Positions 1 through 17,168 of a stretch of 17,168 nt of DNA are shown here, one piece after another. This DNA is from Sulfolobaceae archaeon. Lineage in GTDB: Archaea > Thermoproteota > Thermoprotei_A > Sulfolobales > Sulfolobaceae. Position numbers and translations under genes: made by a program. The DNA is taken from positions 1 to 17,168 of the forward strand of contig JAWARQ010000012.1 of assembly GCA_038893355.1 (NCBI GenBank). Reading direction: 5' to 3'. The number at the start of each line of letters is the position of its first letter. Position 1 is the first letter of the stretch. A model generated the notes under the pieces. It was not told the origin of the DNA. It saw nothing but the letters and a program-made list of their open reading frames with translations, and ran no database searches.

Positions 1-1241
1 AACAATCAACAATATTAGCAATGGGTCTAATCTCTTACATCCCGGGTGCCATAATATTAGGATATTTATCAGATTTAATAGGTAGGCGTAACATGTTAAT
101 TTATACAATCATACTAATTGCAATAGGCAGTGTAGGAATGGCGTTATCTGTAGATTATAATACGTTATTATTCTTTAGGATAATTGAAGGTGCTGGAATT
201 GGAGGGGATTTAGTAATTACTGCAGTTTATATTGTAGAATATGCACCTGCATTAAAGAGGGGCATATATATGAATTGGATCTATATTGCAGGCTGGATTG
301 CAGTAGGTGGGGGTGCAGCATTTACCGGGATATTAGTGCAATCATTGCCGACTATAGGTTGGAGAATAGCATTTGGAATAGCAGCTGCTTTGGCAATTGC
401 TGCAATTGTTTTAAGGATCAGTGCTCCAGAATCAATTAGGTTTTTGGTTAAAAACGGAAGAATGTTAGAGGCGGAAAGATTAACTCGACATATGGAGGAA
501 ATAGTAATAAGTAAGCTTAGCGTTCCAAAACTGCCAGAATATAAATCGTTATCTTATGAGCACGACCATAGAAATCCCTTTAGAATAGTAATTAAGAGAT
601 TCTATTTAAAACGGTTCATTGGTCTATTAATATTTTGGTTTACAATCTATATGGTTCAATACACATTTTCAGGGTTTTGGGGTGGTTATCTACAGTTATT
701 AGGGATAACTGGAGACTTATTCAACAGAGTCTCGATACTTACTGCATACTCCGCAGTAGGTGCTACAATGATGGCGTTCTTGATGTTACTATTTATTGAT
801 AAGGTAGATAGGAGACTATTAATTCAAATTGGATCATTAGGTTGGTTAATAGGGGTATCACTATCTGCAGTAGCTGTAGTGCAGCAAAATTGGGCGCTGA
901 TGTTCCTACTGCAACTCCTGGTATCTAACTTCTTAGGCGGTGGTCTCTCTTATTTAGCTGGATACTTAATTTCAGCTGAAAGCTTTCCCACATCAGCTAG
1001 AGCTACTGGATTTGCATTAACTGATGGATTAGGGCACTTAGGAGGGGGTGTAGGCGCATTGTTAATTGTACCATTAATAAAATCATTAGGTTCAATATTA
1101 CCTTGGGTAATTATCAGTTTTCCAGTAGTTATAGGTGCTGGTTTATTATGGGTATTACTTCCAAGAACTGTAGGGTATAGGCTAGAGGAAATAAATGAGG
1201 TAATGGAAAGAGAAGTAATGTTGAAGTCTAAAATAAGATAA
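1..1241 (+). CDS. MFS transporter (sugar porter / aromatic acid:H+ symporter-like), probably 5'-truncated by the window edge
   Basis: MFS motifs GYLSDLIGRR, FRIIEGAGIGG, EYAPALKRG, PESIRFL and ESFPTSARATG, with many hydrophobic segments. The frame is open upstream of ATG 21 (QSTILA) and the first helix appears to be missing, so the true start is likely before position 1. Confidence 0.9.
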   Translation, partial: QSTILAMGLISYIPGAIILGYLSDLIGRRNMLIYTIILIAIGSVGMALSVDYNTLLFFRIIEGAGIGGDLVITAVYIVEYAPALKRGIYMNWIYIAGWIAVGGGAAFTGILVQSLPTIGWRIAFGIAAALAIAAIVLRISAPESIRFLVKNGRMLEAERLTRHMEEIVISKLSVPKLPEYKSLSYEHDHRNPFRIVIKRFYLKRFIGLLIFWFTIYMVQYTFSGFWGGYLQLLGITGDLFNRVSILTAYSAVGATMMAFLMLLFIDKVDRRLLIQIGSLGWLIGVSLSAVAVVQQNWALMFLLQLLVSNFLGGGLSYLAGYLISAESFPTSARATGFALTDGLGHLGGGVGALLIVPLIKSLGSILPWVIISFPVVIGAGLLWVLLPRTVGYRLEEINEVMEREVMLKSKIR

Positions 1242-1692
1242 GAAAACATTCTTATCTTTTTCTCCTTACCATAATTCTCTTATCAAATTAGCTTAAATTC
1301 ACCTATTGTTAACTATTTCATTCTGCTCAAAGATATTCTATTTATAATAATTTCTATATTTATAAAATTAATTTAAATTATTTTTTATCTTAAAAATTAT
1401 GATAGTTATTGAATAGATATTTTTCATTTAATTCCCTAATTTTGCATTATTTTAGTTAGCGAGATGTCTTTTTTAAATGTTTTTAAAGTAACGTAAAAAC
1501 ATAAAGGATTCTCCGATAAGCTCTAATTTATAGATCTAAGAGTTATGGTTGGATTATCGTAAATTATGGTTTTTATTTATGACAATTCATCTTGAACTCT
1601 TATTGAATTTGGAAATAAGGTGTGTATAAAAGAAAATAGAAGACGATTTATAGTCAATATATATATAGAGTGTAAAATTTATAAAAAATAAA

Positions 1693-2748
1693 TTATGATA
1701 TCTTCATCACAGCACGACCAAGATACTTAGCTTTCTCTAGCTCTTCAAACAAAGTGTTAATTTCACTTTCACTAAATCCTATTACCCTACTTACATGAGA
1801 CTTAACTCTGCCATCAACTGCTAACGAGAACAAGTCCTCAAATTCATTAGTTACTCCGACTATTGATGGTATTACCTTAATAAACCCTAGAATTGAAGCT
1901 AGTGGAGTTATAGGTATTGGTCCTTCATTTTCTGCTGGAATTCCTACTACTATTAAAGCCCCAGGTGGTCTTAATAACCTTAAGCCTAGTTCATAACCCT
2001 TTATCCTAGGAGTGAAGACTAATGATGCATAAACACCGCCTAACCTTTCTTTTACGAATTTTTCGGCTTCTCCCGCATCTACTACGTAATCTGCACCTAG
2101 CTTTTCAACAAATCTTAATCTTTCTTGCCCTATATCAATTCCTACAACTCTGTAGCCAAAAGCCTTAGCTATTTGAACTGCATAATGCCCTAAACCACCA
2201 GCAGCACCTATTATAGCTACAGTCTTACCTGCAGGCAGTCTTACTTCAGTAATAAGTTTTCTTACAGCACCATAAGCCGTTATTCCTCCACACATCATTG
2301 GTGCTACTTCAGTATCTGGTAGGTCTTTAGGTATCCTCGGTGCTGCCATTTCATGAATAATAGCATATTCCGCATACGTTCCATCTACGTTAACTGATGT
2401 ATATTTTGCATTAGAGCACCAGTGCGGATATCCTAATAGACATAGTTCACACTGACCGCACCAATAATTCATCCATGGTACACCAACTCTGTCACCTTTT
2501 CTAAGTCTAGAAACTCCAGGGCCGACTTCTTCAACTATTCCAATCCCTTCGTGACCTAATACCTTAGTATTTGTTAGATCCATAACTTGCCTTACACTAC
2601 TCCAATCTCCTTTCCACTGGTGTAAATCCGTATGACATATTCCAGTAACGCTTAATCTTACTAGAACTTGCCCAAAACCTGGTGTAGGTTTAGGAACCTC
2701 CTCCTTCACTAACGGTTTACCATACTCTTTTATCCTTAATGCCTTCAT
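1693..2748 (-). CDS. Zn-dependent alcohol dehydrogenase (MDR, AdhP-like), NAD(H)-type
   Basis: Catalytic Zn ligands in GICHTD, GHEG and MMCGG. Structural Zn site CGQCELC...C. Rossmann GAAGGLG followed by GIDIG (Asp implies NAD). Confidence 0.93.
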   Translation of the reverse strand: MKALRIKEYGKPLVKEEVPKPTPGFGQVLVRLSVTGICHTDLHQWKGDWSSVRQVMDLTNTKVLGHEGIGIVEEVGPGVSRLRKGDRVGVPWMNYWCGQCELCLLGYPHWCSNAKYTSVNVDGTYAEYAIIHEMAAPRIPKDLPDTEVAPMMCGGITAYGAVRKLITEVRLPAGKTVAIIGAAGGLGHYAVQIAKAFGYRVVGIDIGQERLRFVEKLGADYVVDAGEAEKFVKERLGGVYASLVFTPRIKGYELGLRLLRPPGALIVVGIPAENEGPIPITPLASILGFIKVIPSIVGVTNEFEDLFSLAVDGRVKSHVSRVIGFSESEINTLFEELEKAKYLGRAVMKIS

Positions 2749-2770
2749 TATAATATTTTTAGGTTATATA

Positions 2771-2784
2771 TTTAAAAAGCTTTC
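2771..2784 (-). promoter_or_regulatory. BRE-TATA of the leaderless adh gene
   Basis: The minus strand reads GAAAGC-TTTTTAAA, ending about 23 nt before ATG 2748. Confidence 0.6.
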
Positions 2785-3005
2785 TAACGATTAATTAATA
2801 GATGTATACACAAAAATATTACAAAGATATATATTATAAAGGTAATATTAAATAGTTTTTATCATTATAGTTTAGATCAAGCATTTTATTTACTTTCTAA
2901 CATTTAGGTTAACTTTATAAAATGTACAAAACGAAACATCGAATAAATAATTGTTGAAAAGATTTTCAATATTATAATACAGTTTATCCATAGAATAGAT
3001 TATTA

Positions 3006-4439
3006 CTAAATAAACAACTCTTTATATTTTTCTGTAATAGTTTTAACTAGCTCATCACTAGGTTTAACTTCGATTGGGAATTGATTTCTGATAAGTTTAT
3101 CAAAAGGTTTTACAGCGTATATAATTGCACGCGATGATACATACTCGCTTATAAATTCTCTCCTTTCTGCCATTGGATCTAATGGTGTACTCCATACGTT
3201 TTTTATTACTTCTATAGATCTTATTGGATCAGATCTAGTACACATTGCCCATATAACTTGATTTATATCTGTTGGATCTATGTCATCATCAACTATAATA
3301 ACATATCTACCACCATATGCACTTAATGGACTTGTTGCTACGATGTGTCCTACCGTAGTTGCATGGCCTGCTGAAATTTGTTTTATAGATACAATTATAA
3401 ATGCCCTACCAAATCCTGCTTCATGAACCCATACTCCTTTAATTCCAGGGATTCCAATTCTCTCTAACATATTCCAAATCATTGCGGCACGAATAGGGCA
3501 TCTAAAGTAAGAATAGTCATAAGGCGGAATGCTAGGTGCTGTTCCTAAAAGAATTGGATTTTCTCTATAATATACTCTTTCAACTTCAATAATAGGGCTT
3601 TTCATCTTACCTCCTGCATAATAACCCATAAATTCACCGAAAGGTCCTTCATCTATTGTTTCTCCAGTAATATATCCTTCAATCGCAATTTCACTTTCAG
3701 CTGGGATAGGTAAGTCTGTGAGTTCTCCCTTAATTACTTTAAATCTCTTTTTAATTACAGCACCTGCAAAATTATATTCAGATACTCCATAGGGTACTTC
3801 CATTCCTGCAAATATGAAAAGTGAAAGGGGTGGTCCAAATGATATGGCTATCGGTGCTTTAATTCCCTTTTTAAGATAATTCTCTATATGAATTCTACCA
3901 TGATGTCCTGCATCTATGAATATTGCTAACCTTCTTCTATCTACTAGCATTACTCTATAAGCTCCAACGTTTATCCAATCTGAATCTGGATCTTTAGTAA
4001 TTACAGCATCCGCAGTTCCAATATATCTTCCACCATCTAACTCATGCCACTTCGGTGCTGGGAATTTAAGAAGATTTACATTCTCACCCCTATCAACATT
4101 CTCCATTACTGGAGAATCGTTAACTATTATAGGATCGTAATTCTTATATTCTCTACTTGCATAGTCTAATCTCTGCTTTAAAATTTTGACTAATTGAATG
4201 TCATTGACTTTATCAGGAATCTCTAACGCGAGCCCAACTCTTATTGCATCTAACAATGCGCCAGTTAGTAGTCTATATCCTTTTGGATAATCCTTTATCT
4301 CATCAAATAATAATGTATATTTCTTCTTTTTAGCATTTAAATCGGTTATTGCACCAATCTCTAAGTTCCAATCAGCTCCTCTAATTTCCCTTAAAAGACC
4401 TAACTTCCTAACCTCTTCAATAAATTTTCTAATTTCCAT
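3006..4439 (-). CDS. UbiD-family (prFMN-dependent) (hetero)aromatic acid decarboxylase
   Basis: Motifs ADWNLEIGAI, DGGRYIGT, NVGAYR (catalytic Arg), EGPFGEFMGYY (catalytic Glu pair) and VDDDIDP..WA..TR..P. Length 477 aa. Confidence 0.93.
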   Translation of the reverse strand: MEIRKFIEEVRKLGLLREIRGADWNLEIGAITDLNAKKKKYTLLFDEIKDYPKGYRLLTGALLDAIRVGLALEIPDKVNDIQLVKILKQRLDYASREYKNYDPIIVNDSPVMENVDRGENVNLLKFPAPKWHELDGGRYIGTADAVITKDPDSDWINVGAYRVMLVDRRRLAIFIDAGHHGRIHIENYLKKGIKAPIAISFGPPLSLFIFAGMEVPYGVSEYNFAGAVIKKRFKVIKGELTDLPIPAESEIAIEGYITGETIDEGPFGEFMGYYAGGKMKSPIIEVERVYYRENPILLGTAPSIPPYDYSYFRCPIRAAMIWNMLERIGIPGIKGVWVHEAGFGRAFIIVSIKQISAGHATTVGHIVATSPLSAYGGRYVIIVDDDIDPTDINQVIWAMCTRSDPIRSIEVIKNVWSTPLDPMAERREFISEYVSSRAIIYAVKPFDKLIRNQFPIEVKPSDELVKTITEKYKELFI

Positions 4440-4528
4440 GGCTTATAATTTTTTAAATCCAGTTATTAGAGCTTAACTATGTAATATTATTCACTCATCA
4501 AATTATATTCGTATGATAAAATATTTTA

Positions 4529-5068
4529 TTAAATTGGAAAATAAAGGTTATATGAGGGATAGTTAGGGGTGTCCAAGTATATAATCCTTTTATATAGTTT
4601 CATTTCGTTACCACCGCTATAGATTCGTATGACATCTTCCCTCTTCCCAGATATTAAGTTAAAAGTTCCTTTTATCATTTCATCACCTTCTATTCTAAGT
4701 AGTATAAAACTGCTATTTACATGAATTTCTGAACCTCTCCTTTCTATTATTCTTACATTTCCAATAATTCTTCTAGTAAATGTCTTAGCATAATTGTACG
4801 CCCAACCATATTCAGATTTTAATCTTTGTATATATAGTCTCCACTTGTTTTTATCTGCACTAAATAAAAATTTTTCTTTGGAAAAATTTAATTTTTTATT
4901 TTGAGTAATTTCTCCTACAATGACGAAATACTCAAAATTATCATCTAGCAACTCTAGCCATTTTTCATAGTCTTCTTCATTTAATAACTCAACCTCTTTA
5001 TATACGAAGTTTAATATCTTAAAATACAACTCAACCTCTTCCTTTAATTCACTGTTCACTACTCTCAC
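4529..5068 (-). CDS. Aromatic ring-hydroxylating dioxygenase beta (small) subunit
   Basis: Pattern FVYKEVELL...YEKWLELL, TRRIIGNV, V.SSF...R, SGKREDVIR and L.KRIIYLD. It starts 3 nt after the alpha-subunit stop. An alternative GTG start lies at 5059 behind a GGTGA. Confidence 0.9.
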   Translation of the reverse strand: MRVVNSELKEEVELYFKILNFVYKEVELLNEEDYEKWLELLDDNFEYFVIVGEITQNKKLNFSKEKFLFSADKNKWRLYIQRLKSEYGWAYNYAKTFTRRIIGNVRIIERRGSEIHVNSSFILLRIEGDEMIKGTFNLISGKREDVIRIYSGGNEMKLYKRIIYLDTPNYPSYNLYFPI

Positions 5069-5071
5069 CCC

Positions 5072-6397
5072 TTAGTGTATCATTTCCATAACCCATCTTT
5101 TCCAAAAAGTCCTTTGACATTCTTCATGAAATTGAGTTGGTCTTACTATTCCAGGGCCTTTCCAATCTTTAATAACTGGCAAATCTTTTCCGCCTCCCTT
5201 CAATGCTGTAAAGGCAAAGTTTGCAAAATATCCTCCAGCAACCTTCGTTATACCCCTCCATATAGCTGTATCATCCATCTCTGCAGCCCCAGAAGGTCCG
5301 AAATGGGATACAGTAATCTCATAGACTCTTTTTGCAGTTTCATTATCTACTTCTTTTGGAACTATAACCCATGTCCATACTTCAGTCCTATTTTCACTTA
5401 TAGGTTGCCAGACCCGTAATAATGAAACTGGTGCTCTAGGTTTTACTGGGCCTGGATAATCAGTAGAATCTGCGGCTATGAACCCTGAAAAATTAGGAAA
5501 GATTGTAAAGACTGTATGCGAAACTTTCCTTAAAATTTCAAATCTCTCATCATAATTATTTTCAATATTCTTTAGTTTAAAACCAAAATAACCAGGAATA
5601 TTTTCACTAGGTACTAGTCTAAATCCGAAAGCACCTACTGGTTTGCCATTAACATCTTTTAAATCAGCTATTGAAATCTCATTCTTTCCTGGCGTTAAAT
5701 ACCCGAACCTAGATAATGGGCTTGCAAGACCATATTCTACTACACTCTTATGAGTCATAATAGTGTGCAATCTGTCTTCAGAGAAATTCTCTGCACCTAT
5801 TTTCCAATTAAAATCTGCAATAAATCTTAATGGTGAGTTTACTGGCCTCATTCCACCAGTTAATTTAAATATTACATCAAGATAGTACTTTGCTTCACCT
5901 AAATATTCGTCTAAAGAGATAGAAGGAGCTTCGCTACCGAATATTAAATTTTCATATTGCTGGATTTTTATCTCTATTAATCCCCATTTTTCAATATCAA
6001 GATCCTTGAAGACAATTTCACGCAATGGCATTCCTATCAATTTACCCACATTATTATACGTCCATCCGTGATATGGACATGTAAAAGTTTTTGCATTACC
6101 TTTTTCAGCGTTACATAATATTGCTCCTCTATGTCTACAACTGTTAAAGAAACCTCTTATTTTTCCGTCATCTCCCCTCACAATAATAAATGGGTCTGGG
6201 CCAATATATCTAACGATATAGTCTCCTTCCCTTGGAATTTCATCAGAAAATCCTAAGAATATCCAAGATTTTGAAAAGATTCTTTCAAGTTCAAGGTTAA
6301 ATATCTCCGTATCATTAATCACCTTCAAAGGAATTTCATAGTTCTCATCAATAAAAAATGACTTATACAAACTTTCCAAATGTTTTCTGATACTCAT
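5072..6397 (-). CDS. Rieske non-heme iron ring-hydroxylating oxygenase alpha subunit
   Basis: Rieske ligands CRHRG...CPYHGW. Mononuclear Fe site NWKIGAENFSEDRLHTIMTH (bridging Asp plus two His) and GPSGAAEMDD (Asp ligand). Also ELERIF..SW and TIFPNFS. Confidence 0.95.
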   Translation of the reverse strand: MSIRKHLESLYKSFFIDENYEIPLKVINDTEIFNLELERIFSKSWIFLGFSDEIPREGDYIVRYIGPDPFIIVRGDDGKIRGFFNSCRHRGAILCNAEKGNAKTFTCPYHGWTYNNVGKLIGMPLREIVFKDLDIEKWGLIEIKIQQYENLIFGSEAPSISLDEYLGEAKYYLDVIFKLTGGMRPVNSPLRFIADFNWKIGAENFSEDRLHTIMTHKSVVEYGLASPLSRFGYLTPGKNEISIADLKDVNGKPVGAFGFRLVPSENIPGYFGFKLKNIENNYDERFEILRKVSHTVFTIFPNFSGFIAADSTDYPGPVKPRAPVSLLRVWQPISENRTEVWTWVIVPKEVDNETAKRVYEITVSHFGPSGAAEMDDTAIWRGITKVAGGYFANFAFTALKGGGKDLPVIKDWKGPGIVRPTQFHEECQRTFWKRWVMEMIH

Positions 6398-6506: not shown

Positions 6507-7601
6507 TTAAGGTTTTATTAAACTCCGTAAGATCTCTCCCTTTTTCAAATTCTCTATCGCTTGATTTATATCCTCTAACTTATACTTACTAGATATTAAT
6601 TTAGCGGGATCATATCTCTTAGACCTTACCATTGCAAATAATTTTGGCATATCTATCCTAGGTCTTCCACCATGTGCGGTTAATATTCTTATTCCATTCC
6701 TTAAAAGGTGTGCTATCTTTAAGGGTATTTCTTGATTAGCAGGAGGAATTCCAACCTGAATTACTTTACCTCCTATTCTTACTAATTCTGTTGCCATTCT
6801 AATAGTTTCTAATGTACCAGCAACTTCAAATACAATATCTACTCCTCCATCACTAATTTCTTTAACCCTTTCTATAGTATTCCCTTCCTTAGCATTTATA
6901 ATATGAGTCGCACCTAATTCTAATGCCTTTTTTAATTTCCAATTATAGATGTCTATAACTATAATCTCCCCCGCCCCTATTGCCGATAACATCTGGACTA
7001 TCGATAAGCCTACTCCTCCAGCACCAATAACTGCTGTACTCTCTCCTGCTTTAACTTTAGCAGTATTCACTACTGCACCATACGCAGTTAATCCAGCACA
7101 ACCTAATATTGCTAGTTCTTCATTCGGATTAAGGTCGTTAGGGATTTTATTAACTGCATTTTCATGGACTATAACATATTCAGCAAATCCTCCTCCCATA
7201 AACATTCTTAACTCTCTCCCATCCCTGAATCTTAATCTACTTGTACCATCTAACATAACGCCCTTTAATCTATTCTTTATAAAATTCTCACATAAGTTCT
7301 CGAGTCCTGCTATGCAATTTCTACATTTTCCACATGGTTGAATGAATGAGACAACTACTATATCACCTTCCCTAACTCTAGAAACGTTTTTACCTACCTT
7401 AATTACTTCTCCTAATATTTCATGTCCTGCAATAACTGGTGGTTCTATTGGTGTAAATCCTAAAAATACGTTAAGATCGGAATGACATAGACCACAAGCT
7501 TTTACTTTTATCATAACTTCATTTTCTTTAGGATTTTCTATATCTATATCATCACGTATCTCTAAAGGCTGATTATATCTAAATAGTACTGCAGCCCTAA
7601 T
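6507..7601 (-). CDS. Zn-dependent dehydrogenase (MDR), paralog of the Sulfolobales succinate-semialdehyde reductase type; probable start ATT at 7601
   Basis: Motifs GLCHSD, AGHE, CGKCRNC...C, LGCAG and GAGGVG. The frame upstream of ATG 7514 reads [29 protein letters not shown], the normal MDR N-terminus, and is bounded by an in-frame TGA at 7608-7610. Confidence 0.9.
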
Positions 7602-7603
7602 AC

Positions 7604-8938
7604 CTATTCACCCATTAGAGCCTTTTCTTTACTTATTGCACCTTTGGTCTCTGGAGACAGTAAAGTTCCTATAAGTTCAATTATTCCAGCTACTATAATC
7701 GCTACTGTCATTACTAATGGAAATTTTGGGAAACCGCCAACAGCATTAAGTATTAAGGTAACTATTGTTGGTGATGAACCTCCTATTGCAAATCCAATAT
7801 TCCATGTAAGTGCTACACCAGTACCTCTTACTTGTGTTGGATATGTTTCATTTAGATACGTCATTACAATCCCACCTCCAAAATCTGCAATGAATGATAT
7901 TGTGAAGGCTAATAGTATTATTAGATTTAGCTCATTTATCGTTAAACCTCCTAAGATTAAAAATAGTGGACTCATAATTATTACTATAATGCTACCTATT
8001 AATGACATGGTTTTCCTACCTATTAGCTGTGAGAGAGCACCACCTATAACTGGGCCTATCAGCATGCCTAAGGATGCAAATATCATCACTATTCCAACTG
8101 ATGGTCTAGGCAAACTATTCACGTTGCTTAAAAATGTAGGAAAAAGCCCTTGAGTTAAATAATACATCAATGCCCATCCTACCGTAACGATTAGAGCAAT
8201 GAAGAATTTCCTTCTCAATTCAATATTTTTAAATATTTCTCTCAATGGCGATTTTACTAACTGCCCTCTTTGTTTAACCTTAGACCATACTTCAGATTCT
8301 GGCGTTATATAACTAACATAAAACAGAATTATCAAAGGAAATAAACCACTAAAGAACATAACTCTCCACCCTAAATCTAAGTAAGAATTTCCTGGGAACC
8401 AAATTGTAGTAGCGTAAAACCATAATGATGCAATAAGATAAGCAGCACCTGCAGCTGCAAATCCTATACCTCCTACCCAACCTCTATGTCTTTCTGGCAC
8501 AGATTCTGGCCCTATAGTATGACTTCCAGCGGTCACTCCTCCTATAAAGAAGCCTTGAATTAATCTAAGCAATATCAGTAATGTGGGTGCTAATATTCCT
8601 GCAGTATAGAAAGTCGGAAGTGCACCTTGTAGTGATGTAGTTATAACCAATCCAATTATACCATATATTATAGCCCTCTTTCTACCAACTTTATCAGCAA
8701 TCTTTGTACCAAAATAACCGGCACCGAATGGTCTCATTATGAACGATACGAGGAAGCCTGCATATGTTGCAGCTATTGATAATAGGGGAACTTGTGATGG
8801 GAAAAAGAGGGATGAAATGTAGGGTGTAACTAGAAGTATTATGAATAAATCGTATAGGTCAAAGGTCCATGTAAAGAAACTCGCTAATATCCATTTTACA
8901 TGCCTTGATGTTAGCTTATCTTCGCTCAATATACTCAC
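7604..8938 (-). CDS. MFS transporter (metabolite:H+ symporter-like)
   Basis: Motifs WTFDLYD, MRPFGA..FG..ADKVGRK, LRLIQGFFIGG, ESVPERHRG, GWRVMF and ETYPTQVRGTG. GTG start. Confidence 0.92.
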   Translation of the reverse strand: MSILSEDKLTSRHVKWILASFFTWTFDLYDLFIILLVTPYISSLFFPSQVPLLSIAATYAGFLVSFIMRPFGAGYFGTKIADKVGRKRAIIYGIIGLVITTSLQGALPTFYTAGILAPTLLILLRLIQGFFIGGVTAGSHTIGPESVPERHRGWVGGIGFAAAGAAYLIASLWFYATTIWFPGNSYLDLGWRVMFFSGLFPLIILFYVSYITPESEVWSKVKQRGQLVKSPLREIFKNIELRRKFFIALIVTVGWALMYYLTQGLFPTFLSNVNSLPRPSVGIVMIFASLGMLIGPVIGGALSQLIGRKTMSLIGSIIVIIMSPLFLILGGLTINELNLIILLAFTISFIADFGGGIVMTYLNETYPTQVRGTGVALTWNIGFAIGGSSPTIVTLILNAVGGFPKFPLVMTVAIIVAGIIELIGTLLSPETKGAISKEKALMGE

Positions 8939-9105: not shown

Positions 9106-9753
9106 CTAGGAATTGTTTATTAGCTTTTTTATAAAATAACCTATTATCTTATTCTCAGCTCTCCTTAGGTGGTATATTAGTGTAGATTGTTTAATCCCTA
9201 TTATCTTTGCTAATTCTTCTGCCTTAATTCTTCTTGGATAATCAAAATATCCAAGGTCATACGCTAGACTTAGTATTTTTAATTCCCTATCACTAAGGTC
9301 GTTTATTGGGATTTCATCAGTAACATCGACTCTTTCTATTTGAGCGAATTCTTTTATTTCATTTAATAACTTATTCAATTTATATTCATAAGCCAATAAA
9401 TTCCAGATTTCCCCTCCATTAAACTTCATTGTATTCAAGACTATACCATTATTCCTTACTATAACGGACAGTATCGAATTATCGTAATCTCTAGCCAAAT
9501 CTACTATAATTTTATTTTTATAATTAAAAATATTATATATATTTTTTATTTTCTCTTCTGATTTAAGTTTTACTATAGTCCTATAACCTTTCTGGGAGAC
9601 AATGGCAGTAACCCTCAAAATGTTTTTCTCAGGATATGGAATTAAACCTATTATCTTCACTAAATCTTCCTCTAAATAATACTTACTCCAACAGTTTTCA
9701 TGAATTAGGTAAATATTTACCAACTTTATGGGACTTTTATTCACTCTTAGCAT
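9106..9753 (-). CDS. Transcription regulator with C-terminal bacterio-opsin-activator-type HTH (HTH_10)
   Basis: C-terminal LSDRELKILSLAYDLGYFDYPRRIKAEELAKIIGIKQSTLIYHLRRAENKI and N-terminal HENCWS, both typical of Sulfolobales members. Confidence 0.92.
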   Translation of the reverse strand: MLRVNKSPIKLVNIYLIHENCWSKYYLEEDLVKIIGLIPYPEKNILRVTAIVSQKGYRTIVKLKSEEKIKNIYNIFNYKNKIIVDLARDYDNSILSVIVRNNGIVLNTMKFNGGEIWNLLAYEYKLNKLLNEIKEFAQIERVDVTDEIPINDLSDRELKILSLAYDLGYFDYPRRIKAEELAKIIGIKQSTLIYHLRRAENKIIGYFIKKLINNS

Positions 9754-11682: not shown

Positions 11683-12456
11683 GTGAGCATCATGATCAGA
11701 GTCGAAATAGATAAGGAGAATAAAATAGGAAAAATATTAATAGATAGACAAGAAAAGATGAATGCGATAACAGTATCTATGAGAAGAGAAATTGGAGAAA
11801 AATTAATTGAGTTTAATAAAAACCCTGATGTGAAAGTCGTGATAATTAAAGGAATAGGTGGAAAGGCATTCAGCTCTGGCGGAGATATAAGCGAATTCCT
11901 CTCTCTAACTCCAGATATTCTAATTGACTGGGGTGAAGATATTTCTATGTCAGAAAGAGTGTGGAAACCAGTAATAGCTGCAATTGATGGTTATGCCTTT
12001 GGTGCAGGATTTGAGCTTGCATTATCTTGTGATATCAGAATAGCAACTCCAAGAAGTGAATTTAGTTTCCCCGAAATAAGGTTAGGAATGGTTCCGGCAA
12101 GTGGCGGAATTACTAGGATAATAAAAACCTTAGGATTATCCAGAGCTACATATCTCTTAATGTTGGGGAAGAGAATAGATGCACAGACTGCATTACAATG
12201 GGGAATAGTGCATGAAGTAGTAGAACCAGAAAAATTAGATGAAAGGGCCTATGAAATAGCAAAAGAGCTCTCTAATCTATCATCGTTAGCATTAAAAGCA
12301 TTGAAGAAGATTCTTCACGAAATAGCTGATGCCCCCTTATATGTAGGGTTTGATATTGAGAGAAAAACCTTCGGCTTACTTAGATACTCTAATGATTTTA
12401 AGGAGGGTGTAGAAGCATTTCTAAATAAACGTAAACCAAAATTTGATGGGAGGTGA
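11683..12456 (+). CDS. Enoyl-CoA hydratase/isomerase (crotonase) family protein, HmfE (2-oxoglutaroyl-CoA hydrolase)-like
   Basis: FSSGGDI oxyanion loop, KPVIAAIDGYAFGAGFELALSCDIR, PEIRLG and DFKEGVEAFLNKRKPKF. HmfE likeness rests on recalled sequence and on adjacency to the Mo enzyme. Confidence 0.9.
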   Translation: MSIMIRVEIDKENKIGKILIDRQEKMNAITVSMRREIGEKLIEFNKNPDVKVVIIKGIGGKAFSSGGDISEFLSLTPDILIDWGEDISMSERVWKPVIAAIDGYAFGAGFELALSCDIRIATPRSEFSFPEIRLGMVPASGGITRIIKTLGLSRATYLLMLGKRIDAQTALQWGIVHEVVEPEKLDERAYEIAKELSNLSSLALKALKKILHEIADAPLYVGFDIERKTFGLLRYSNDFKEGVEAFLNKRKPKFDGR

Positions 12457-14750
12457 ATTTAATATTTAAAGAAGGTTTTAGGTTTGTATCTGGAAAAGGA
12501 AGATATATCGATGATGTAATTAGAGAATATAAGAATGTTCTTCATGCAAGTATAGTTAGATCTGCTTATGCTCATGCTAAAATAAATTCCATAGACGTAA
12601 GAGATGCGGAAAGATTGAGTGGAGTTATTAAAGTTTTAACGTTTAGAGACATAAAACCATTTTTAGATCCTTTTCCTCTTTCATTAGATATAAATTTAGA
12701 ATATTATCCTATAGCTAAGGATAAGGCAGTATATTATGGTGAACCAATAGCTGTAATCATTGCAAAAGATGAATATATAGCCGAAGATGCTAAGGAATTA
12801 GTTCAAATAGACTACGAACCTTTAAAACCGATAATCTCAATCAGAGACGCTATAAATTCTCCTCCAATACACTCAAATCTTTCATCGAATATAGTTTTGA
12901 ATAAAATACTTACCTATGGAAAATTCGAAGAGAGTATTAAAAAGGCCGAGGTAGTCACTGAAACGAGAGTTAAGTTTCCACGATACTCATGTGCTCCTCT
13001 AGAGACATATGAAGTTCTAGCGAAGTTTGATGGAGAAGAGTACGAGATATATTCAAATTTTCAAGGACCTTTTACTATTCATTACTTGTTAACTAAAGCA
13101 TTAAAAAGTAAAGTAGTTTTAAGAGGTCCACGCGATATAGGCGGGTCTTTTGGAATAAAGAGTGCAATCTACCCATACATGGCGTTAATAGCAGTTGCAA
13201 GTAGAATAGTAAATAAACCAGTAAAATGGATCGAAACAAGAAATGAGCATCTAATAGCTAGTTCTGCAGGTGCAGAAAGAGAGTCTTTAGTTAGAGTTTA
13301 CGGAAATAGGCAAGGTAAAATTTATGCCTTAGAGATTGAAATGACAGATAACCTTGGTGCTTATCCTAGACCTCCAGAGCCGGGTAACCTGCTAAGAAAT
13401 CATGGAAATATTACTGGTGCTTATGAAATAGAAGGACTAAAATTAAATTATAGGGCTGTACTAACAAATACTTTACCTACTGGGCTTAATAGAGGTTATG
13501 GTGGACCTCACTTATATCTTGCACTAGAAACTGCAATAGATGATTTTGCAGAAGAAGTAGGGATCGATCCATTAGAGGTAAGGTTTAAAAATGTGATAAA
13601 GGGAGAGGAATATGAGACATTAACTGGAGGTAAGTATCATGGTTTTAGTTGTTATAAAGTAGTTAAAGAAATGAAGGAAATTTATGAAAAATTAATTAAA
13701 GAATCAAAAAAATATAAAAATAGAGGAATTGGGGTTTCATTAATAGTAGAACCTTCTGGAACAAATATTGGTTACCTAGATTTGGCTCGAGTAAGCAAGA
13801 ATTTCTTACCTAAATCTTCTGCACTTGATGTGGTTTTGGTTCAAATAGATCCATATGCAAAAGTAAAAGTAATAATAAATGGAACTAATGAGGGTCAAGG
13901 CCATGAATCCGTAATTTCTAAAATTGTATCAGAGAGGCTAGGTATTAGTGAAGATGATGTAGAAGTTATTTACTCTGTAGATACAGTAAGGCCATGGAGT
14001 ATAACTTCTGGAACGTATTCTAGTAGATTTTCCCCAATAATAGTTAAAGCATTAAATAACGCGTTAGATAAGCTTGAGGACACTTTACTTACTTACGCAT
14101 CAGAGCTACTTAAGGTTCAGAAATCACAGTTAAAGATTGAAAATGGCAAGATACTGAAAGTTGGTAGTGATAAATCAATATCTATAAAGAATTTAGTAGG
14201 TATCTTCTATTGGGATCCTGCAAAGCTGAAGGGTATAGAGGACGGATTAACTGCAATAGGCTATTATCAATCACCCTACGCGGATGATCTAGAAGAGAAT
14301 AGAATAAATTCATCTATAGCATATGGCTGTCTTGGTCATATAGTTGAATTAGAGTTAGACGAAGAGACAAAAATTCCTAGAATACTTAATTACTTCATTA
14401 TCCACGATTCAGGGAAGATATTAAACGAAGAATTAGCTAAAGGTCAATTATTAGGTTCAACGTTTCATGGAATCGAAGTAGCCCTCTATGCTTCATTAGA
14501 GTATAATGATGAAGGGATTCCAATTTCACAGACCTTTTCAGAGTATGGTATATTATCTACGATGGAAAGTCCAAGAAGTATAAGTATAGTTCATATAGTA
14601 ACTGATCCGAATTATATAGCTGGATTAGGAGAAGGAGGTACAATGGCTGCACCAGCAGCTATAGTTAATGCTATTAAAAGGATATTAGGGGTGAAAGAAG
14701 TTAAGATACCAGTATACAATTTTATAAATGAGTTGTATAAATTGTATTAG
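12453..14750 (+). CDS. Xanthine-oxidase-family molybdoenzyme large subunit, HmfA (2-furoyl-CoA dehydrogenase)-like
   Basis: Motifs GKGRYIDD, VRSAYAHAKI, IGGSFGIK, PTGLNRGYGGP, GQGH, SGTYSSRF and GLGEGG (catalytic Glu). GTGA overlap with the upstream stop. Confidence 0.92.
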   Translation: MNLIFKEGFRFVSGKGRYIDDVIREYKNVLHASIVRSAYAHAKINSIDVRDAERLSGVIKVLTFRDIKPFLDPFPLSLDINLEYYPIAKDKAVYYGEPIAVIIAKDEYIAEDAKELVQIDYEPLKPIISIRDAINSPPIHSNLSSNIVLNKILTYGKFEESIKKAEVVTETRVKFPRYSCAPLETYEVLAKFDGEEYEIYSNFQGPFTIHYLLTKALKSKVVLRGPRDIGGSFGIKSAIYPYMALIAVASRIVNKPVKWIETRNEHLIASSAGAERESLVRVYGNRQGKIYALEIEMTDNLGAYPRPPEPGNLLRNHGNITGAYEIEGLKLNYRAVLTNTLPTGLNRGYGGPHLYLALETAIDDFAEEVGIDPLEVRFKNVIKGEEYETLTGGKYHGFSCYKVVKEMKEIYEKLIKESKKYKNRGIGVSLIVEPSGTNIGYLDLARVSKNFLPKSSALDVVLVQIDPYAKVKVIINGTNEGQGHESVISKIVSERLGISEDDVEVIYSVDTVRPWSITSGTYSSRFSPIIVKALNNALDKLEDTLLTYASELLKVQKSQLKIENGKILKVGSDKSISIKNLVGIFYWDPAKLKGIEDGLTAIGYYQSPYADDLEENRINSSIAYGCLGHIVELELDEETKIPRILNYFIIHDSGKILNEELAKGQLLGSTFHGIEVALYASLEYNDEGIPISQTFSEYGILSTMESPRSISIVHIVTDPNYIAGLGEGGTMAAPAAIVNAIKRILGVKEVKIPVYNFINELYKLY

Positions 14751-15099: not shown

Positions 15100-15405
15100 G
15101 GGTGGAAAACCTCGCCTTTTTGAGGAGAAATTAATAGCCCCTTATATTTGCATACTCTTTTTTGAAACATTTTTCAGCGATTTTAGCGACGTTCCTCTTC
15201 AGCTCGATGGAACTTTGGGAGGGGCACCTATAGTCTCTTAAGGGGCTAGACGTTATGGATGAAAGTCACTCTCCTTTCAGGTGGGAGTGGTTCTCTGCCC
15301 TACTCGACTGCCCACTAAATGAGAGATGCAAACCCGAATCGATGGTGGGAACGATGAACTCTCTGGGAGGGAACTTTTACCTCTATGAGGTGGTGAGCAA
15401 GTCAG
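15100..15405 (+). mobile_element. Degenerate non-autonomous IS200/IS605-family remnant(s), including a tnpB 3'/right end
   Basis: GC-richer patch in AT-rich DNA. AAAACCTCGCCTTTTTGAGG resembles a decayed subterminal hairpin, and there is a hairpin CACTCTCC-TTTCA-GGTGGGAGTG. GGTTCTCTGCCC..CGACTGCCC..AAATGAGAGATG.AAACCCGAATCGATG...GAGCAAGTCAG resembles recalled Sulfolobales tnpB ends finishing GAGGAAGTCAG. The left boundary is uncertain. Confidence 0.65.
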
Positions 15406-15425
15406 TTTTTATTGCTCCCTTATTT
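15282..15425 (+). ncRNA. Possible orphan omegaRNA (reRNA) scaffold plus flanking guide
   Basis: Inferred only from resemblance to tnpB right-end sequence. There is no expression evidence and the terminal hairpin is degenerate. Confidence 0.3.
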
Positions 15426-15745
15426 ATTAAATTCTTATCGTCACTTACCAGTGGAATATTATATTTTCTGCTCAAAAATAAATAAGTAGCATCATAATAA
15501 GTTAAATTTTCATTAACTGCAATCTCTAATACTTCCTTGGATAATTTCACATTTTCTACCTTAATGAACTTTAAGATGTTTGAAAAGTCAGACAGTAAGT
15601 CAGTCCTTTTAATCTTCCAAAGAAAATTTCCGATCTCGTAATATACTAAATCAGCAGTTATACACTCTTTAAAAAGGTCTATTGATCTATCTTTCAGTCT
15701 TTGAATTAAATTGATAATCGCTGACGTATCTAAAACATACTTCAC
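15383..15745 (-). CDS. vapC: PIN-domain toxin VapC
   Basis: PIN acidic motifs YVLDTSA, YEIGN, LTYYDATY and LVSDD. GTGA overlap with the antitoxin stop. Confidence 0.93.
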   Translation of the reverse strand: MKYVLDTSAIINLIQRLKDRSIDLFKECITADLVYYEIGNFLWKIKRTDLLSDFSNILKFIKVENVKLSKEVLEIAVNENLTYYDATYLFLSRKYNIPLVSDDKNLINKGAIKTDLLTTS

Positions 15746-15966
15746 CTTTCTCTGTCCTCCCTAATTAGCCTTACAACATCCTCTACGGATAATTTTAACT
15801 CCTCGGCAATCCTCTTAGAGGACTTTCTTGCCTCTTCTTCTTCCCTCTTCTCTATCTCTTCCTCTAGTGATTTTCTCAATACTTCCGATATATTAATACC
15901 GTACTTTCTCGCTTTTTCAAATACTTCTTTTCTTACTTTAGTTGAGACTGTAACCCATTCTGTCAT
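15742..15966 (-). CDS. vapB: Antitoxin VapB (RHH / CcdA-like)
   Basis: 74 aa with VTVSTKVRKEVFEKARKYGINISEVLRKSLEEEI and C-terminal IREDRER. Directly upstream of the PIN gene. Confidence 0.9.
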   Translation of the reverse strand: MTEWVTVSTKVRKEVFEKARKYGINISEVLRKSLEEEIEKREEEEARKSSKRIAEELKLSVEDVVRLIREDRER

Positions 15967-15983
15967 ATATATTACTTAATATC

Positions 15984-16007
15984 TTGTAGTAATAAATTTT
16001 ACTACAA
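15984..16007. promoter_or_regulatory. Palindromic operator over the vapBC TATA box
   Basis: Perfect inverted repeat TTGTAGTAA-N6-TTACTACAA. Minus-strand TTTATTA lies about 25 nt before ATG 15966. Confidence 0.75.
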
Positions 16008-16097
16008 CGTTTAGCATAAAGGCTATTCAATATGCACTGAATTCTTTTTTTACGTTAATAGAAATCTTTTTATATTCATTTATTATCAACTAAATTT

Positions 16098-16620
16098 GTG
16101 GAGAGACTTTTAAGGCCTAAGGAGGCTTGCCAACTGTTAGGCATTTCATACTCAACACTCCTAAGGTGAATTAGGGAAGGCAAAATAAGGGCTGTAATGA
16201 CCGAGGGCGGAAAGTATAGGATACCATACAGCGAGGTTAAGAAGTATTTGGAGAGGAGGGAGGAGACTAGGGCAGTAATTTACGCTAGAGTCTCATCAGC
16301 AGACAAAAAGGAGGACTTGGAGAAACAAATAAATTATTTAACAAACTACGCAACAGCAAAGGGTTACAAAATAGTAGAAGTATTAAAAGACATTGCTAGT
16401 GGGTTAAACGCACAAAGGAAAGGGTTACTAAAGCTGTTCAAACTAGTAGAGGGGAGGAGTGTAGACGTCGTGTTAATAACACACAAGGACAGGCTAACAC
16501 GTTTAGACTTTGAGTACTCAGAGGAGTTCTTTTCAGCCATCGGAGTTAGGATAGAGGTAGTCTTTGGAGAGGAACCGAAAGACACAACACAAGAACTCGT
16601 CGAAGACTTAATCTCAATCA
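16098..16620 (+). pseudogene. tnpA: IS607-family serine transposase TnpA, nonsense mutation and 3' truncation
   Basis: From GTG 16098 it reads MERLLRPKEACQLLGISYSTLLR*IREGKI (MerR-like HTH, TGA at 16167-16169 where Trp is expected), then YARVSS, KDRLTR and ELVEDLISI, cut by the IS1 end at 16621. Confidence 0.9.
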
Positions 16621-17168
16621 GATAGTGTTGTCATTAAGCTACAAATTCTGGGATTAACATTCTCTCCCATAAGACTAAAGCTATAGAATACTTCATCACC
16701 TCCAAACTCCTATTGACAGCCTTCGTGAACCTCTTGAACCTAACAAGCCTATCCCTCAACAAGGCCTCATTAGGGTTAACAAACTTGACCAAAGTATGGT
16801 CCCTCAAGGAAAAGTATAAATTATAATCATCACTAACCCACCCTCTGGGGAATATTGCAAAACTTCCTTGAAAGCCCCTTATTCCTATAAACAACAGAAA
16901 ATAAAGACCAAGGGGAGTATAAACATAGTAAGTAAAGACTAACTGTAAAATGCCTTAACATTCCTAAACAAGTAAGCCCAAAACCTCATCAAAAACCTTA
17001 CCCTTAACCAAATCCTTAGCCTTCCTTAATGAGCTCCTCGTGCTTCTGCCTACCATAGCGTTTAATCCAAGTGAAAACAGTACCCAAAGGTAAGTTAAGT
17101 ACCCTAGAAATTGCCCTCATACTCATACCATCAGAATACATCCTTAAAGCTTCTTCCCTCAACTTCCT
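16621..17168 (-). mobile_element. IS1-family element (ISC1173-like) with decayed transposase; continues beyond the window
   Basis: Terminus GATAGTGTTGTCATTAAG is similar to the IS1-type GGTAGTG end. Minus-strand fragments in different frames: EALRMYSDGMSMRAISRVLNLPLGTVFTWIKR (HTH), KGKVFDE, WVSDDYNLYF and NPNE..LRDRLVRFKRFTKAVNRS. Frameshifts and stops lie around 16900-17030. Confidence 0.85.

Follow-up and report, generated by a model that had tools for sequence, protein, structure and literature searches.

Rieske ring-hydroxylating oxygenases built from a catalytic alpha and a small beta subunit have been characterised essentially from bacteria (papers are cited below by PMC number). The described systems closest to the one analysed here are the naphthalene 1,2-dioxygenase of Rhodococcus (2B1X/2B24), the alpha/beta phthalate 3,4-dioxygenase of Rhodococcus jostii RHA1 (9JP5), whose substrate is an aromatic carboxylic acid, the phenylpropionate/cinnamate dioxygenase HcaE/HcaF (NF042946/NF042947; 8K0A), whose substrate is likewise an acid, and, from a thermophile, the alpha/beta enzyme NahAc/NahAd of Geobacillus sp. 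JF8, which is of the Gram-positive type (PMC7023095). A 2017 survey of Rieske oxygenases in thermophiles deals with bacteria only and notes that these enzymes are rarer in archaea (PMC5209329), and a 2022 survey of hydrocarbon oxygenases reports, in the part accessible, only tmoA among the screened ring-hydroxylating oxygenases in Sulfolobales (PMC9535955). Within the Sulfolobaceae, Saccharolobus solfataricus possesses a multicomponent di-iron phenol/toluene monooxygenase and a catechol 2,3-dioxygenase (PMC7820114), and ARF, its Rieske ferredoxin of the oxygenase type, has served as a model protein in earlier work (PMC2946596). Here we analyse a pair of genes for an alpha/beta Rieske oxygenase at positions 4529-6397 of a 17,168-bp contig from a Sulfolobaceae archaeon (assembly GCA_038893355.1, contig JAWARQ010000012.1, forward strand), which at its full length is called the window. 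On balance, we lean towards a reading in which the pair, by its sequence an intact terminal oxygenase, would act on an aromatic or heteroaromatic carboxylic acid and form an optional branch of a catabolic module of the Sulfolobaceae. The two genes are as follows.

5072-6397, minus strand: Rieske oxygenase alpha (catalytic) subunit, 441 amino acids, predicted from Pfam, Protein Data Bank (PDB) match, alignment and an AlphaFold2 model
4529-5068, minus strand: Rieske oxygenase beta (small, structural) subunit, 179 amino acids, GTG start, predicted from Pfam and PDB match

The alpha subunit carries every sequence and fold hallmark of the alpha/beta Rieske oxygenases that was looked for, and falls in no named substrate-specific equivalog. 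It scores 64.4 bits against the Pfam family Rieske (PF00355; cut-off 20.3) and 42.8 bits against Ring_hydroxyl_A (PF00848; cut-off 24.9). The Rieske motif reads C87-x-H89-x17-C107-x2-H110 (C87-R-H89 and C107-P-Y-H110), in keeping with the family pattern C-x-H-x15-17-C-x2-H, and the iron motif reads D208-x2-H211-x4-H216 with D375-D376 further on, giving H211, H216 and D376 as iron ligands and D208 as the bridging aspartate. In an alignment of 77 homologues, from which three rows with mis-extracted open reading frames (L035, L039, L062) had been dropped beforehand, C87, H89, C107, H110, H211 and H216 are invariant (77/77), and D208, D375 and D376 are each kept in 76 rows; a separate 38-sequence alignment also has these columns invariant or near-invariant. 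The best solved relative is 2b1x_A, the Rhodococcus naphthalene dioxygenase (E = 1e-86, residues 16-439), followed by phthalate 3,4-dioxygenase 9jp5 (1.4e-64) and then by biphenyl, benzene and phenylpropionate dioxygenases, and the register of the iron motif agrees with 2b1x in the pairwise alignment. An AlphaFold2 model built on the 38-sequence alignment reaches a mean predicted local distance difference test (pLDDT) score of 92.7 and a predicted template modelling (pTM) score of 0.92, and its top Foldseek match is again 2b1x_A (template modelling, TM, score 0.91; root-mean-square deviation 2.2 Å; 34% identity). Confidence is lowest at residues 231-240 (pLDDT 66), 261-280 (78-79) and 401-410 (78), the first two blocks lying within a region, residues ~228-290 (from R230-F-G-Y), that aligns poorly with 2b1x. 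The bridging aspartate of naphthalene dioxygenase is D205. Its iron ligands are numbered H208, H213 and D362 (PMC7023095).

The family models of NCBIfam place the enzyme less precisely. The best model for alpha is HcaE (NF042946), and since the score of 225.7 lies far under the cut-off of 830, no equivalog assignment is possible; the models for the large subunits of benzoate/anthranilate 1,2-dioxygenases (TIGR03229, TIGR03228 and NF041684) give 143.4, 122.8 and 132.6, below their cut-offs of 781, 672 and 750, and match alpha in its N-terminal half only. The beta gene begins (5066-5068) 3 nucleotides after the alpha stop codon (5072-5074), and its product scores 61.3 bits against Ring_hydroxyl_B (cut-off 27), matches the solved small subunits 2xr8_B (3e-15) and 2b1x_B (9e-15), and has HcaF (NF042947) as its best NCBIfam model, again under the cut-off (65.5 against 230). 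Orthologues of beta, at 38-57% identity, adjoin alpha in 6 genomes. Judged from its sequence, the pair is an intact alpha/beta terminal oxygenase of the naphthalene/biphenyl/phenylpropionate type.

Set beside the Rhodococcus naphthalene dioxygenase, the window pair aligns over its full length (alpha 1e-86, beta 9e-15) and shares the fold, the ligands and the bridging aspartate, but it is only 34% identical, has the iron motif E-D-R-L-H in place of G-D-A-Y-H, leaves the ~228-290 loop unaligned, and sits in an archaeal host among different gene neighbours. A plasmid protein of Geobacillus genomosp. 3 is 38.7% identical to the window alpha over 99% of the query, and we infer that it is the product of the JF8 gene. 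Unlike the window pair, NahAcAd of JF8 is bacterial and naphthalene-induced and is followed by a short-chain dehydrogenase gene, and the nahAcAd genes gave no product when expressed in Escherichia coli (PMC7023095). Phthalate 3,4-dioxygenase aligns over residues 22-435 with a TM score of 0.81, but at 30% identity. Its pathway continues with a dehydrogenase and then a decarboxylase that is not of the UbiD type. HcaE and HcaF provide the best NCBIfam models for both subunits, although the scores given above keep the window pair outside that equivalog. The S. solfataricus system shows aerobic degradation of aromatics in the Sulfolobaceae, together with oxygenase-type Rieske ferredoxins and a TodA-like reductase, but its oxygenase is a di-iron monooxygenase and not a Rieske alpha/beta enzyme (PMC7820114, PMC2946596). 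No characterised archaeal alpha/beta Rieske oxygenase was found in the literature searched, which left most subscription journals and supplements uncovered.

The original prediction, made from the sequence of the window, had described the pair as a complete Rieske oxygenase with every Rieske and iron ligand and the bridging aspartate intact, a tightly coupled cognate beta subunit, a divergent substrate-entry region and no assignable substrate, and as belonging to a type characterised essentially from bacteria. All of this is borne out except for the word complete, which applies to the alpha/beta terminal oxygenase but not to its electron supply. Neither the window, small open reading frames included, nor eight related loci (L095-L097, L099-L103), in which open reading frames of at least 70 amino acids within ~10 kb of the oxygenase were screened, yielded a gene for a ferredoxin or a reductase.

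The genes that surround the pair are given below, and it is from these that a functional context may be proposed.

3006-4439, minus strand: UbiD-family aromatic acid decarboxylase, dependent on prenylated flavin mononucleotide (prFMN), 477 amino acids, 89 nucleotides downstream of beta; Pfam UbiD, UbiD_C and UbiD_N
6507-7601, minus strand: Zn-dependent medium-chain alcohol dehydrogenase (Zn-ADH), class III-like, a candidate dihydrodiol/aryl-alcohol dehydrogenase
7604-8938, minus strand: major facilitator superfamily (MFS) metabolite/H+ symporter, likely for uptake of the acid substrate; Pfam Sugar_tr and MFS_1
9106-9753, minus strand: HTH_10-type regulator between two divergent gene sets; Pfam HTH_10, 81.5 bits
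9888-11591, plus strand: AMP-forming acyl-CoA ligase, short/medium-chain ACS-like
11683-12456, plus strand: enoyl-CoA hydratase (crotonase)
12453-14750, plus strand: large (molybdopterin-binding) subunit of a xanthine-dehydrogenase-family molybdenum (Mo) hydroxylase or aldehyde oxidoreductase
1693-2748, minus strand: second Zn-dependent alcohol dehydrogenase, AdhP-like, of uncertain module membership
3-1241, plus strand: MFS transporter cut by the contig end, of uncertain module membership; best model TIGR00895 (aromatic acid/H+ symporter), 135 bits, under its cut-off

On the minus strand the genes thus run in the order HTH_10 regulator, MFS symporter, Zn-ADH, alpha, beta, UbiD and second Zn-ADH, and the ligase, hydratase and Mo-hydroxylase genes diverge from them on the plus strand. 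The UbiD protein exceeds the cut-off of TIGR00148 (267.9 against 244.85), and its best PDB match is 7pda, PhdA of Mycobacterium fortuitum, a prFMN-dependent phenazine-1-carboxylate decarboxylase (296.7 bits, residues 3-446; PMC10850782). PA0254, whose PDB names are UbiD-like and aromatic acid decarboxylase, follows at 183 bits, and Fdc1 stands at 144 bits or less. The comparison with PhdA concerns the neighbouring gene rather than the oxygenase, and the identity is moderate and the substrate not transferable. UbiD enzymes need a UbiX prenyltransferase, and a UbiX flavin prenyltransferase is encoded on contig C5 of the same genome (TIGR00421, 184.1 bits, cut-off 108.9). The MFS protein at 7604-8938 has TIGR00883 as its best NCBIfam model, at 211 bits and under its cut-off. 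At its true N-terminus the Zn-ADH gene at 6507-7601 lacks all three usual start codons (ATG, GTG, TTG): a TGA at 7608-7610 precedes the frame, which opens only at 7607 and overlaps the MFS stop codon (7604-7606), and an ATT at 7599-7601 aligns with Met1 of a 57% identical orthologue in genome G010. The gene may use a non-canonical start or have lost its start codon, or the sequence may contain an error. The second Zn-ADH is only 34% identical to the module ADH of the relatives, which is why its membership is uncertain.

Much of this arrangement recurs in the family. Within 10 kb of alpha in four genomes (G028, G017, G019 and G009), and despite rearrangements, lie orthologues of UbiD (71-79% identity), the MFS symporter (60-68%), the HTH_10 regulator (54-66%, in the same position), the ligase (73-80%) and the hydratase (79-83%). 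The MFS orthologues, at 60-68%, are found in the module of seven genomes. Across the 40 other genomes of the family, UbiD orthologues occur in eight (G006, G007, G009, G010, G017, G019, G027 and G028), and orthologues of the adjoining ligase (57-80%) and hydratase (55-83%) genes occur in nine, namely the same eight and G024. Mo-hydroxylase orthologues at 63-72% follow the hydratase gene in G006, G017, G019, G009, G027 and G028. In G010, the most distant carrier, the alpha-beta pair is followed by the 57% Zn-ADH orthologue, which adjoins beta; an AMP-ligase, an MFS transporter and a UbiD paralogue are nearby, and a 56% UbiD orthologue lies ~20 kb away. Three genomes (G006, G007 and G027) carry the whole module without an oxygenase orthologue, and in G022 (L099, C10:533400-553399) an oxygenase orthologue stands without the module, near a 361-amino-acid cupin-domain protein. 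The oxygenase is thus present in six of the nine module-bearing genomes, this one included, and because three of them do without it, it is read as an accessory part. By gene content and order, the conserved Sulfolobaceae module is real and the oxygenase is an accessory branch of it. In G006 (L113, C1:60000-79999, ~1193-4650) the Mo-hydroxylase matches in two pieces (query 1-543 and 542-758) some 1.2 kb apart, which suggests an insertion or disruption there.

Three residues of alpha set this clade apart. E207, R209 and R230 are present without exception in the 15 distinct rows of the orthologue clade, and each is found in no more than 15% of the 59 rows outside it; the clade motif at the iron is E207-D208-R209-(L/I)-H211, whereas elsewhere G is usual at 207, S, A or G at 209, and P at 230. 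R209 lies inside the D208-x-x-H211 iron motif, where by motif register it would replace an alanine that lines the pocket in naphthalene dioxygenase. Together with the PhdA-like UbiD, the metabolite and aromatic-acid:H+ transporters and the position of phthalate dioxygenase as second-best solved relative, the clade arginines lead us to infer that the probable substrate is a carboxylic acid, aromatic or heteroaromatic, and not a neutral hydrocarbon. Three substrate themes would employ all the enzyme types of the module: phenylacrylic or phenylpropanoic acids, benzene-dicarboxylic or polycyclic carboxylic acids, and N-heteroaromatic carboxylic acids. The last of these would suit the Mo-hydroxylase and a PF04199 'cyclase' gene that lies inside the module in G019 and G007.

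Enzymes of this family carry electrons from the Rieske cluster by way of the bridging aspartate to the iron of the neighbouring alpha subunit, where O2 is activated and the ring is hydroxylated. By analogy, the window pair may assemble into an alpha3beta3 complex in which beta is structural, and electrons would travel from the Rieske [2Fe-2S] cluster (C87, H89, C107, H110) through D208 to the Fe(II) (H211, H216, D376) of the adjoining alpha; O2 activated there would add two hydroxyls, or possibly one, to the aromatic ring. Upstream of this step, the MFS symporter may import the acid, and the oxygenase and Zn-ADH together could yield a dihydroxy-aromatic acid, with the PhdA-like prFMN decarboxylase stripping off the ring carboxyl either before or after oxygenation. 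The divergently encoded acyl-CoA ligase, enoyl-CoA hydratase and Mo-hydroxylase could then treat a side chain, an aldehyde or a heterocycle, and the HTH_10 regulator may govern both arms. The products could feed a LigAB-type extradiol pathway on contig C10 of the same genome. That contig (L101 1-17301) encodes two more alpha/beta Rieske pairs, ~36% identical to the window alpha, beside a LigB-type extradiol dioxygenase, Amidohydro_2 and PIG-L proteins, a 2-hydroxyacid dehydrogenase, an AMP-ligase and two MFS transporters, together with a LigK-type aldolase (NF006731, 271.7 bits, cut-off 179). In G028, LigA, LigB and related genes directly adjoin the module. A bolder form of the proposal would see here a novel aerobic (hetero)aromatic-acid pathway of the Sulfolobaceae, in which an E-D-R-L-H Rieske oxygenase, a PhdA-like decarboxylase, a Mo-hydroxylase and a CoA ligase/hydratase pair are placed under one HTH_10 regulator and general carriers supply the electrons in place of a dedicated reductase and ferredoxin; we put this forward tentatively, and it is rather unlikely to hold in full. 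If it did, the oxygenase would be wired through general carriers, such as the 100-amino-acid Rieske ferredoxin considered below or the ferredoxin pool, in a manner not described for bacterial systems.

Several observations weigh against the aromatic-acid reading. The link between oxygenase and module is not obligatory, since each occurs without the other (the module alone in G006, G007 and G027, the oxygenase alone in G022). Among 80 screened homologue loci in named genomes, nearly all bacterial and one haloarchaeal, a UbiD gene lies near just two (L029 and L047) and without a shared module, so that there is no transferable bacterial precedent. The cis-dihydrodiol dehydrogenases are usually of the short-chain type, and the Zn-ADH at 6507-7601 is class III-like, besides being encoded by a gene without a canonical start. 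The ligase is similar to acetyl-CoA synthetase 9g79 and the hydratase to 3-hydroxypropionyl-CoA dehydratase 5zai, both of them general short-chain enzymes. That R209 and R230 may line the pocket is read from the motif register and the pocket of naphthalene dioxygenase, not from coordinates. The reductase families PF00175 and PF14759 were not found in this 84%-complete genome. Lastly, the closest solved and best-studied relatives, the Rhodococcus naphthalene dioxygenase and Geobacillus JF8 NahAc, act on neutral hydrocarbons.

The last of these points opens the strongest of the alternatives, namely that the enzyme is a strict hydrocarbon dioxygenase of the naphthalene, biphenyl or alkylbenzene type, acting on neutral aromatics that might themselves be products of the UbiD enzyme, for example where a cinnamate-type acid is turned into a styrene-type compound. 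Fdc-type UbiD enzymes, going by their PDB names, do make styrenes from cinnamates, the best NCBIfam model for alpha is that of a phenylpropionate/cinnamate dioxygenase, and both the nearest solved structure (E = 1e-86, TM 0.91) and the Geobacillus plasmid homologue point to naphthalene, the JF8 genes being naphthalene-induced (PMC7023095). However, identity to these enzymes is just 34-39% and the HcaE score is far under its cut-off, while the UbiD protein is far closer to PhdA than to Fdc1 and the clade arginines at the iron motif and the carboxylate-type transporters suit an anionic substrate better. We therefore regard the hydrocarbon alternative as rather unlikely, although it is the one that survives best.

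A second alternative keeps the aromatic acid but changes the chemistry, so that the enzyme would be a monooxygenase or demethylase, similar to salicylate 5-hydroxylase or to an O-demethylase, that leads directly to gentisate or protocatechuate with no dihydrodiol. Alpha/beta Rieske monooxygenases exist, and one of them, the NagGH salicylate 5-hydroxylase 7c8z, matches alpha at 2e-24; in addition, cupin-domain proteins lie near the 57% orthologue of G022 (361 amino acids) and near a 41% paralogue in G035 (363 and 393 amino acids, with an FAA-family hydrolase), which may be read as a gentisate-type lower pathway. True dioxygenases are nevertheless a far closer match to alpha (295 bits) than NagG is (89 bits), and in this genome and in G010, the carriers that diverge most, an ADH gene adjoins the pair, as would fit a dihydrodiol step. 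This alternative is judged to be unlikely, more so than the hydrocarbon one.

The question of electron supply bears on a third alternative, that the genes are intact but idle or decaying accessories without a matching electron-transfer partner in this organism. The genome contains six Rieske-domain genes: the three alphas, a 252-amino-acid frame, and two small proteins of 100 (contig C2) and 139 (contig C1) amino acids. The 100-amino-acid Rieske ferredoxin is present in 40 of the 41 family genomes and is for that reason a general component, uninformative for co-occurrence. The 139-amino-acid protein has matches at E <= 1e-15 in seven other genomes, four of which carry an oxygenase orthologue (G028, G009, G019 and G010), but because the matching genomes are related it is a weak lead only. 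A homologue of it in G030 (C1:1238945-1239340), a genome without the oxygenase, has an in-frame TGA and may be a pseudogene. Reductases of PF14759 occur in 26 of the 41 family genomes and never near the oxygenase. Electrons would have to come from carriers encoded elsewhere, for which the 100-amino-acid Rieske ferredoxin, the 139-amino-acid Rieske protein and the general ferredoxin pool are candidates. Idleness would agree with the lack of a ferredoxin or reductase in the cluster and of PF14759 and PF00175 in the genome, with the absence of the oxygenase from three of nine module-bearing genomes, and with the loss of a canonical start codon from the neighbouring ADH gene. However, both reading frames are intact and every ligand is kept, and purifying selection is indicated by the clade residues, which do not vary among 15 distinct sequences. 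Completeness of the genome is only 83.8%, and all six other orthologue-bearing genomes have a PF14759 reductase, with the 100-amino-acid Rieske ferredoxin present here as well. An idle pair is thus quite improbable, and a working aromatic-acid oxygenase remains the reading that we prefer.

The distribution of the enzyme was followed in a whole-genome search with alpha at E <= 1e-10. Of 36 further genomes in the family, 13 have matches, and none was found in the 24 genomes searched from 12 other families in the order. Clear orthologues are present in six of the 36: G028 (73%), G017 (69%), G019 (60%), G009 (59%), G022 (57%) and G010 (51%). Named orthologues include those of Saccharolobus shibatae (69%), Sulfolobus sp. 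S-194 (68%), Sulfolobus acidocaldarius SUSAZ (58%) and Sulfodiicoccus acidiphilus (50%), most of them annotated as 'aromatic ring-hydroxylating dioxygenase subunit alpha' and the SUSAZ protein labelled '2Fe-2S ferredoxin'. Haloarchaeal megaplasmids (Haloferax mediterranei, Natrinema, Halostella, Natribaculum and others) encode homologues at 36-40%, and the best named bacterial homologues reach only ~40%. In a quick maximum-likelihood tree of 80 rows, midpoint-rooted, with support from the Shimodaira-Hasegawa-like approximate likelihood ratio test (SH-aLRT) only and with the three mis-extracted long-branch rows (L035, L039, L062) disregarded, the orthologues from the Sulfolobaceae group with related metagenomic sequences in a single clade of 18 rows (SH-aLRT 99, stem 0.53 changes per column). 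Next to it stand two metagenomic proteins and then a haloarchaeal Natrarchaeobius protein, with support of just 89-90, and the named Actinomycetota, Chloroflexota and Bacillota sequences lie farther out. The two further alphas on C10 fall in different parts of the tree, and the family therefore has at least three lineages of these oxygenases.

These results bear on the remaining claims of the original prediction, which had called for such a genome search and phylogeny. That the host is archaeal is confirmed, by named Sulfolobaceae relatives and by contig-wide synteny with complete genomes of the family. The gene is neither rare nor unnoticed, given the annotated orthologues in cultured Sulfolobus, Saccharolobus and Sulfodiicoccus and the haloarchaeal homologues: the enzyme type is textbook, the genes were already annotated in public genomes and this is not a new kind of enzyme, for which reasons a specialist would not be greatly surprised. 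The suggestion of an old acquisition stands in part. A single clade across five other genera and a host-like G+C make it plausible that the gene was acquired before the genera separated, with later losses. However, the gene is patchy (6/36) and optional in the larger module, and its identities spread from 73% to 51% over genomes (G028, G017, G019, G022 and G010) whose elongation factor 2 (EF-2) is 80-83% identical to that of this genome; the EF-2 identities are too flat to separate vertical descent from transfer within the family, and such transfer would fit equally well.

Some neighbourhoods of more distant pairs may be recorded here. On plasmid pHME322 of Haloferax mediterranei (L111) genes for a small 2Fe-2S protein and for the selenium-binding protein SBP56 lie ~3 kb from an alpha/beta pair, and an SBP56 gene also lies ~4 kb from the alpha/beta pair in G017 (L096). 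The 41% paralogue of G035 (L102, C1:1607000-1626999) is accompanied by the two cupin-domain proteins and the FAA-family hydrolase mentioned above. Taking L102 and L099 together, the alpha/beta pairs adjoin cupin-domain proteins of 361-393 amino acids, an FAA-family hydrolase, a PrpF-family protein and Amidohydro_2 proteins; the cupin and FAA neighbours suggest that a gentisate-type lower pathway may be linked to other Rieske oxygenases of the family.

The window is the whole of contig C12 in a 1.40-Mb genome bin of 17 contigs (G000), with an estimated completeness of 83.8% and contamination of 0.04%, and its G+C is 34.1% against 32.5% for the genome. By sequence comparison the host is an archaeon of the Sulfolobaceae, the family being given by named Sulfolobaceae alphas that are identical or near-identical in the tree to the rows of G017, G028, G009 and G010. 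That a bacterial contig was misbinned into, or is chimeric with, an archaeal metagenome-assembled genome could be argued from the mainly bacterial nature of the enzyme family and from the shortness of a contig (17.2 kb) that is itself the entire window, but it is a very remote prospect given ten window genes with orthologues of 54-83% identity in complete genomes of the same archaeal family, conserved in order though rearranged, bacterial alphas that are at best ~40% identical, the HTH_10-type regulator, the matching G+C and the low contamination estimate. Pieces of both genes at 100% identity also occur, at low depth, in further sequencing runs labelled hot springs metagenome, one of which belongs to a study other than the two possible source studies; with the synteny and G+C, this makes a bacterial origin or misassembly of the contig, named by the original prediction as what would overturn it, very unlikely. 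No RNA run is listed among the sequencing runs that match the stretch. Short contigs 100% identical to parts of 4529-6397 are found as well in 'manure metagenome' runs and in a run under a coded organism name (runs X5 and X3), where labelling, carry-over or a thermophilic compost-like habitat could be the cause.

What these data add is a coherent clade of alpha/beta Rieske oxygenases in the thermoacidophilic Sulfolobaceae, set in a module that points to aromatic-acid catabolism; new here are the conserved module with its PhdA-like UbiD, the clade-specific arginine signature at the iron site and the absence of dedicated electron-transfer genes. In the literature searched, no paper on this gene cluster in Sulfolobus was found. 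Sulfolobus acidocaldarius is a model organism amenable to genetics. One source gives this species name to the protein of a genome in which an orthologue (58-60% alpha identity) lies with the same module, and the pathway, the substrate and the electron supply are thereby directly testable in a tractable relative. A presumably heat- and acid-adapted enzyme of this kind could serve as a biocatalyst, as the original prediction suggested for a thermostable one.

The far end of the contig holds genes of another kind.

15383-15745: PIN-domain protein, a mobile/addiction-type gene near the contig end
15742-15966: 74-amino-acid open reading frame overlapping the start of the PIN-domain gene, with which it would form a VapBC-like pair
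16197-16625: resolvase-domain protein
17016-17168: helix-turn-helix fragment that runs off the contig end

It is because of these mobile and addiction-type genes at 15383-17168 that the assembly likely broke at this end.

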